In this document: positions 57,590 to 58,524 of the stretch, in pieces | Layout: every line of letters starts with the position of its first letter | How positions within the stretch are numbered: position 1 is the stretch's first letter | Assembly (NCBI GenBank): GCA_003971905.1 | Contig: RSEE01000001.1 | Span: 1,178,001-1,242,000 of the forward strand | Direction of reading: 5' to 3' | DNA length: 64,000 nucleotides | From: Moniliella sp. 'wahieum' | Lineage: Eukaryota | Translations under genes and position numbers: made by a program | The notes under the pieces: model-generated | What the model was told of the DNA's origin: nothing | Database searches by the model: none | Seen by the model: only the letters and a program-made list of their open reading frames with translations

Positions 57590-58524
57590 ATGTCGGCTGA
57601 GATTCCTGCTGTCAACGACGACGTCTACCAGGGTGCCATCGGCATCGACCTTGGCACCACCTTCTCCTGCGTCGGCTGGTGGACCAACGAGCGCGTTGAG
57701 ATCATTGCCAACGACCAGGGCAACCGCACCACGCCTTCCTACGTTGCCTTTACCGACTCGGAGCGTCTCATTGGCGATGCCGCCAAGAACCAGGCTGCGA
57801 TGAACCCCCGCCAGACCGTGTTCGATGCCAAGCGTCTCATCGGCCGTCGCTACGACGACCCGGATGTCAAGAAGGACATGGCCCACTGGCCCTTCACCGT
57901 CGTTGACCGCGACGGTTCCCCCGTCATCGAGGTCGAGTACCTCGGCGAGAAGAAGCAGTTCACCCCCCAGGAGATCTCTGCCATGGTCCTGACCAAGATG
58001 AAGGAGATTGCCGAGGCCAAGATTGGCAAGGAGGTGCAGAAGGCCGTCGTTACCGTCCCTGCGTACTTCAACGACTCGCAGCGTCTGGCCACCAAGGATG
58101 CCGGTACGTTTTTCTTTTCTTTCTTCTCTCTCCCCCGGACGATATTGGTGGCGGGCAACAGGCGTGGCATGGCTGTGATTAAGAACAGTATTCCATGCTA
58201 ATACCGCAGGCCTTTGGTGCTCTGAGGACTCCCATACTATTCCAACTGCTGTATGAGCCTCTGTATGCCCGCCGTTGGCTGCCACCTACTGTCCTACCCG
58301 GGTTTCTCAGAAGGGTGGTACTGACTTTTTTGTATTTCTTAGGTTCTATTGCCGGCCTTGAGGTGCTCCGTATCATCAACGAGCCCACTGCTGCTGCCAT
58401 TGCCTACGGTCTTGACTCCAAGTCGTCGGAGGAGAAGAACGTGCTGATTTTCGACCTGGGTGGTGGTACCTTCGATGTGTCGCTTCTTAACATCACCGGC
58501 GGTGTGTTCGCTGTCAAGGCTACT

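Follow-up and report, generated by a model that had tools for sequence, protein, structure and literature searches.

The window analysed here is a 64,000-nucleotide (nt) stretch of contig RSEE01000001.1 from the fungus Moniliella sp. 'wahieum', and all coordinates are positions within it. It carries a gene for an Ssb-type Hsp70, which is interrupted by a sole intron (Table 1). The intron opens with GTACGT and closes with TAG, and its excision fuses an upstream segment ending in ATKDAG with the downstream Hsp70 reading frame. Positions 1–157 of the Pfam HSP70 profile fall in the upstream open reading frame (ORF) and positions 156–294 in the downstream one, and because the profile is contiguous across 58104–58342 this segment is a genuine phase-1 intron of 239 nt. 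The best Protein Data Bank (PDB) matches of the N-terminal part of the protein are SSB1 structures, whereas the C-terminal part matches three SSB1 or SSB1-like entries with E values from 1e-44 to 2e-43, the next Hsp70 following at 7e-33. The SSB1 alignment extends to the extreme C terminus of the protein, and on these sequence matches the host gene is an Ssb-type Hsp70. Close to the 3′ end of the intron lies the word TACTGAC, which resembles a branch-point consensus.

Table 1. Positions of the host gene, its intron and the elements of the candidate snoRNA.
Feature	Position	Strand	Basis or remark
Ssb-type Hsp70, exon 1	57590–58103	+	ATG at 57590; Pfam HSP70 profile 1–157; best PDB matches are to SSB1
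Host intron, 239 nt, GT..AG, phase 1	58104–58342	+	Sequence; HSP70 profile contiguous across it (157, then 156)
Flanking (external) stem, 5′ arm	58147–58170	+	Inverted repeats; pairs with 58263–58286 in the MFE structure
Terminal stem GGC, 5′ half	58171–58173	+	Sequence; 3-bp stem in motif scan
Box C, GUGAUUA (GTGATTA)	58175–58181	+	Consensus RUGAUGA; position 6 is U
Guide 1 (D′ guide), TATTCCATGCTAATA	58189–58203	+	15 nt; complements 18S AUUAGCAUGGAAUA
D′ position, CCGC	58204–58207	+	Degenerate, lacks GA; placed by the Neurospora CD11 register
Putative box C′, UGAGGA	58223–58228	+	Placed from sequence; overlaps CTGA at 58222–58225
Guide 2 (D guide), TCCAACTGCTGT	58241–58252	+	12 nt, abuts box D; complements LSU ACAGCAGUUGGA
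Box D, AUGA	58253–58256	+	Consensus CUGA; position 1 is A; motif scan
Terminal stem GCC, 3′ half	58257–58259	+	Sequence; motif scan
Flanking (external) stem, 3′ arm	58263–58286	+	Inverted repeats; MFE structure
Presumed branch-point-like TACTGAC	58319–58325	+	18 nt to the 3′ splice site; box D ends 68 nt upstream
Ssb-type Hsp70, exon 2 to stop codon	58343–59682	+	Four frames, three single-base gaps; C-terminal part closest to SSB1

The second exon is broken three times, near 58752 (58750–58753), 59033 (59030–59035) and 59179 (59177–59181), and at every break one base is missing inside an otherwise unbroken conserved protein sequence. Our Pfam scan of the window, which covered 148 of the 174 ORFs of at least 150 amino acids, located genes for a myosin head (25204–28218), a BMT5-like rRNA methyltransferase (39337–40706) and GatB (41963–43941), all on the minus strand. 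Each of the three is spread over overlapping ORFs in differing frames with contiguous profile positions, and shows frame breaks (or short introns) like those of the Hsp70 gene. Since splitting of this sort also affects other conserved genes in the window, the breaks in the Hsp70 gene are most likely errors of the assembly rather than marks of a pseudogene, and on the same ground we rejected a pseudogene or a non-coding transcript as the host. Given such single-base gaps in the assembly, a base within the snoRNA element itself could be wrong.

Within the intron, the elements of a box C/D snoRNA follow one another in the canonical order and with canonical spacing. The candidate element is separated from the 5′ splice site by 67 nt and, counting from the end of box D, from the 3′ splice site by 86 nt, distances that are typical of intronic snoRNAs by the ranges given in the available part of a Neurospora survey (PMC2780460). 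The initial annotation had described the 239-nt Ssb intron, boxes C, C′ and D, the terminal and outer stems, the two guides, the 86-nt distance and the non-canonical D′ sequence CCGC, and the sequence bears it out on all of these. Three of the four boxes depart from consensus. Boxes C and D each carry one deviation from RUGAUGA and CUGA, respectively; of the internal boxes, C′ is plausible though imperfect, and the D′ sequence is without the GA that a K-loop requires. Degenerate internal C′ and D′ boxes are common (PMC7277114). The CTGA that overlaps box C′ was also considered as box D of a shorter RNA and rejected, as it has no adjoining terminal stem and the stretch preceding it holds no rRNA complement of at least 9 nt. 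Between D′ and C′, at 58203–58218, a palindrome AGGCCT sits inside overlapping inverted arms and might form a small internal hairpin joining the two boxes.

The deviations in boxes C and D match each other. GUGAUUA and AUGA retain both GA dinucleotides and the U·U pair, as a K-turn requires; in addition, the U at position 6 of box C can pair with the A at position 1 of box D, and A7 of box C with the U preceding box D. Watkins et al. 2002 reportedly described this fold as tandem sheared G·A pairs and a U·U pair, followed by a pair between position 6 of box C and position 1 of box D. The two changes would then constitute a compensated swap, from G-C to U-A, in stem II of the K-turn, and we take this compensation as a sign that the motif is functional. 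According to a description of the K-turn in PMC7277114, stem II is required for Nop56, Nop58 and fibrillarin.

Beyond the terminal stem, the two flanks of the element are complementary over a longer distance. The outer stem GGCGGGCA (58150–58157) and TGCCCGCC (58266–58273) is a perfect 8-nt inverted repeat, which by our estimate is not unusual by itself in 239 nt, and an alternative pairing of 58147–58159 with 58274–58286 extends over 13 nt with 85% complementarity. The minimum free energy (MFE) fold of 58140–58285 pairs about 21 bp between the two flanks at −54.7 kcal/mol; its z score of −2.08, with 5 of 200 shuffles folding equally well, is a modest signal.

We searched for guide sequences by comparing the intron with a proxy rRNA, namely a complete SSU–5.8S–LSU unit, delimited with Rfam, that belongs to another eukaryote and not to this species. 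The unit came from eukaryotic contigs in one metagenome-assembled genome (MAG), found by a pattern search in which that MAG held eight copies of the LSU motif as against one of the reversed control. At least five contigs among these eight matches were confirmed as eukaryotic LSU, and the unit used here (L360, on G002:C179, 2762–7997) has an unusually short LSU of 2,910 nt. The 18S motif occurred in at least 110 stretches of prokaryotic genomes and at least 112 of viral contigs, and three of the 222 matches listed are eukaryotic 18S (L060, L071 and L080); the LSU motif occurred in 119 stretches of prokaryotic genomes, with no eukaryotic LSU among them. The eukaryotic rDNA contigs found in public prokaryotic MAGs and genomes (L355–L360, L060, L071 and L080) are bin contamination.

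The two longest complements between the intron and the proxy rRNA are the two guides, which are perfect over 14 nt of the SSU and 12 nt of the LSU; apart from them the intron has no complement longer than 9 nt, and its antisense strand none longer than 10 nt. Mononucleotide shuffling of the intron, repeated 300 times, produced a match of at least 14 nt once and one of at least 12 nt in 18 cases, and the 12-mer of guide 2 is therefore weak when taken alone. Its weight comes from its position. Both strands of the 64-kb window together hold 110 complements to the proxy rRNA of at least 11 nt and 24 of at least 12 nt, and a single one of these 24, at 58241–58252, has an NTGA within the next 2 nt. 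A strict consensus C...D pattern returned no candidates in the window, whereas a relaxed one (box C [AG]TGAT[GT]A and box D [CA]TGA, 50–125 nt, with a flanking stem of at least 3 bp) returned five places on the two strands, and the intron element is the one place among the five at which an rRNA complement of at least 10 nt abuts box D. On the proxy rRNA, the calculated duplex energies of guide 1 (with the SSU) and guide 2 (with the LSU) are −19.6 and −20.8 kcal/mol, respectively; the mean for fungal snR53:18S duplexes is −17.3 in the accessible part of a survey of fungal snoRNAs (PMC5824354).

Two further complements were noted in the window. One, a perfect 14-nt complement to the SSU, lies in an Hsp70 exon at 58812–58825 on the plus strand with no adjoining boxes, so a long complement does not by itself make a guide. 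At 11229–11256 on the plus strand, an 11-nt complement to LSU AGAUCUUGGUG, part of the region that U24 targets, precedes an A and CTGA. No box C was seen upstream of it, it is out of register with the known Cm site by one position, and a similar word, AGATCTGAGAT, occurs 65 nt upstream; this may be a chance occurrence or a degenerate U24-like element.

Guide 1 resembles the D′ guide of the snR53 (CD_11) family. Aligned by eye, the candidate reads GCUAAUA before CCGC and Neurospora CD11 reads GCUAGUC before CUGA, in equal register, the two D′ sequences having their first letter alone in common. In the portion of PMC2780460 available, CD11 runs UGAUGA, 10 nt, AUUCCAUGCUAGUC and CUGA; the candidate runs UGAUUA, 8 nt, AUUCCAUGCUAAUA and CCGC. 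Since the guide core and register are those of CD11, the fifth nucleotide before D′ would pair with the A of 18S UUAGC, the predicted target, which is equivalent to A796 of yeast, in keeping with the initial annotation, which had recognized here the snR53 guide for 18S Am796. The 14-nt SSU motif is present in the 18S fragments L060, L071 and L080 as well as in the proxy.

According to PMC5824354, snR53 guides modification of 18S-796 from D′ broadly across the fungi, that D′ element has U6 snRNA as a predicted second target outside Saccharomycetaceae, and in Pezizomycotina the element before box D has further, lineage-specific LSU targets. In PMC2780460, Neurospora CD11 is an intronic RNA whose D′ guide targets 18S-Am793 and U6-Am47 and whose D guide targets a Neurospora-specific 26S-Am356, and a figure legend there describes primer-extension checks of CD11. 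By analogy with this literature, guide 1 of the candidate probably also acts on U6 snRNA, a target that had been overlooked when the element was first described. On the basis of its motifs and register, the intron very probably encodes a box C/D snoRNA of the known snR53 kind, and we are fairly confident that a functional guide RNA of this type would be made from it.

Covariance models do not recognize the element. At the gathering score, Rfam has no match in the 64-kb window, to rDNA or to any other family, and with E values allowed up to 10 the segment 58050–58400 yields two matches only, both to unrelated families on the minus strand. No snR53, SNORD5 or fungal box C/D family is thus matched there, and the snR53 models RF00338 and RF01279, as named in the part of PMC3511168 at hand, are unmatched up to E 10. 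The earlier proposal of one intronic RNA carrying both an 18S and an LSU guide has support from the sequence architecture and the complements in the proxy rRNA. A metagenome scan for both guides separated by a gap returned nine loci; judged by eye, none of the nine has box C upstream or box D directly downstream, and these are chance matches.

Guide 2 points to a site in the LSU. The motif to which it pairs appears as AACaGcAgUuGgac in a hairpin of the Rfam LSU_rRNA_eukarya consensus, and the complement of the 12-mer is present in the five LSU loci from the proxy eukaryote. To place the site, we anchored the mapping on the C of GAUCUUGG in the proxy LSU, which we take to be the U24 site; in the proxy loci, the target C is found 71 nt downstream. 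At offsets of +12, +64, +71 and +73 from the anchor the proxy has A, U, C and G, and with Gm2411 as what we presume to be the human counterpart of +73, these bases fit Am2350, Um2402, Cm2409 and Gm2411. This agreement supports the mapping well, and by it the fifth position of guide 2 is predicted to pair with the C of ACAGC, the equivalent of human C2409 and Arabidopsis C1510.

The spacing of these sites can be read from published tables, insofar as they were available. The U24 sites are Cm2338 in human, Cm1439 in Arabidopsis and Cm1435 in the yeast numbering of the table, and Am2350 and Am1451 lie 12 positions past them (PMC3511168). Cm2409 of human corresponds to Cm1510 of Arabidopsis, at +71 in both (PMC2685112 and PMC3511168), and SNORD5 is the human guide for 28S-Cm2409, with Um2402 at +64 (PMC8393311). 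In Arabidopsis, Cm1510 is predicted, with snoR121 as its guide (PMC2685112), and also occupies the AtU49 row of the table in PMC3511168. The SNORD5 site named by the initial annotation is thereby recovered, together with its remark that the site is not known from budding yeast, as the yeast column of the row for Cm1510 and Cm2409 is blank in the part of that table seen (PMC3511168). Likewise, no guide for this LSU site appears in the Neurospora snoRNA supplements as available (PMC2780460).

The alternative that survives best is an snR53-type snoRNA in which the 18S guide (with U6) works, the LSU complement being fortuitous or inactive. Such an RNA would be in keeping with the frequency of 12-nt matches among the shuffled introns, with the more than 75% of fungal box C/D snoRNAs that are single guides in the available part of PMC5824354, and with the lack of a guide for this site in the S. 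cerevisiae entries of PMC3511168 and the Neurospora survey of PMC2780460, again within the parts consulted. It accounts poorly, however, for a 12-nt match that directly abuts box D and is the sole complement of at least 12 nt in the window with an adjoining D-like box, that brings its fifth position onto a cytidine methylated in human and predicted to be so in Arabidopsis, and whose duplex is as stable as the one formed by guide 1. We consider this alternative unlikely, and lean, by a small margin over even odds, towards an active LSU guide as well.

Less probable still is that the intron holds a decaying or inactive relic, in which the guides are recognizable but boxes C, D and D′ no longer support a snoRNP and another locus supplies the function. 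That all three of these boxes are off consensus and that Rfam has no match would be expected of a relic; yet the deviations in C and D compensate each other, a pattern that decay would not preferentially produce, and nothing is damaged in the GA dinucleotides of the two boxes, in the terminal stem or in either guide. The genome, moreover, has retained this intron despite being intron-poor. That this is an ordinary intron and its box-like words and pair of rRNA complements are coincidental, as the lack of a match in Rfam and of a homologue among the nine metagenome loci might suggest, is very improbable in view of the single shuffle in 300 that reached 14 nt, a guide core and register identical to those of a described family and the correct order and spacing of boxes, stem and second guide.

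The best explanation of the locus, to which we assign a probability of about 0.6, is a guide RNA in the Ssb intron of the snR53 or CD_11 (mgU6-47-like) functional kind, with one guide for 18S and one for the LSU. On this reading, the host pre-mRNA would be spliced and the lariat debranched, and exonucleases would trim the intron back to a snoRNP assembled on the GUGAUUA/AUGA K-turn, its assembly aided by the GGC/GCC stem and the long complementarity of the flanks. The upstream guide would position fibrillarin at the A of 18S UUAGC and probably, from what is described for the family, at the equivalent A of U6 snRNA, while the downstream guide abutting box D would position it at the LSU cytidine corresponding to human C2409 and Arabidopsis C1510. 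From the arrangement of boxes and guides we infer accumulation of the RNA, assembly of the snoRNP and both methylations.

A comparison with known systems places the candidate close to snR53, with differences in both host and second guide. In S. cerevisiae, snR53 is polycistronic, and the SSB genes of that yeast are not known to contain introns. With snR53, Neurospora CD11 and CD_11, which are related to mgU6-47 of fission yeast and mammals, the candidate has in common the core AUUCCAUGCUA of the D′ guide, its distance to D′, the 18S A796 target (yeast numbering) and the predicted second target in U6. CD11 is likewise intronic, and in Neurospora and Pezizomycotina the family has an additional guide, specific to the lineage, ahead of box D, as reported in the parts of PMC2780460 and PMC5824354 available. 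Lineage-specific D guides on snR53 are thus already described, and the novelty that the initial annotation had seen in the double-guide arrangement was overstated. The candidate differs from CD_11 in the LSU site of its D guide, in its non-consensus boxes C, D and D′ and in matching no Rfam model. It also has a protein-coding Ssb gene as its host, whereas CD11 is tabulated merely as 'Intron' in the accessible part of PMC2780460, in which the host genes of Neurospora snoRNA clusters are said to have little coding potential.

With SNORD5 (mgh28S-2409), Arabidopsis snoR121 and the AtU49 row, the candidate has the LSU target Cm2409 or Cm1510 in common, by prediction, and in snoR121, as far as the source extends, Cm1510 is guided from before box D, as in the candidate. 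These are, by contrast, separate single-site or differently paired guides, and SNORD5 has TAF1D as its host (PMC8393311, in part). Given that Rfam matches neither and that the target site alone is common, the resemblance to SNORD5 and snoR121 is a functional likeness and not family membership.

Vertebrate U14 (SNORD14) offers a parallel in the host, as it is a box C/D snoRNA produced from introns of the constitutive cytosolic hsc70 gene (PMC7277114). Unlike the candidate, U14 is a processing factor as well as an 18S guide, resides in a different Hsp70 paralogue and occurs as three copies in three introns, and it was not detected in Basidiomycota according to the sections of PMC5824354 seen. 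The hosting of snoRNAs in Ssb and hsc70 introns almost certainly arose independently. A further parallel is found in snR59 in RPL7 and snR191 in NOG2, snoRNA introns retained in ribosome-related genes of intron-poor fungi, including smuts (PMC8476143). Both host and snoRNA differ from those of the candidate, and Ssb or Hsp70 is mentioned nowhere in PMC8476143. We found no printed description of an Ssb-hosted snR53, which is not proof of absence, and Table S14 and the models of PMC5824354 may already include the candidate.

The general picture of snoRNA biology is unchanged by the candidate, which is a solid but fairly ordinary addition to a well-known class; for annotation, it is an example of fungal snoRNAs that Rfam models miss. 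A more far-reaching proposal, which we put forward tentatively and at somewhat less than even odds, is that one RNA from the intron of Ssb, a ribosome-bound chaperone of nascent chains, serves 18S, LSU and U6 through a rebuilt stem II (UGAUUA/AUGA), that an ancient plant-and-animal methylation site (human Cm2409), lost in budding yeast, survived in this basidiomycete lineage through transfer of its guide to the snR53 scaffold, and that ribosome modification is transcriptionally tied to a co-translational chaperone. If true, the locus would be a case of guide shuffling, in which an ancient LSU site absent in budding yeast is served by the free position of an 18S and U6 guide RNA, and the candidate offers a natural test of the sequence freedom in stem II of the box C/D K-turn. 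Intron-poor, smut-like fungi have been reported to retain introns that carry snoRNAs (PMC8476143), and the candidate, if true, would help to explain why an intron-poor fungus has kept the intron of its Ssb gene.
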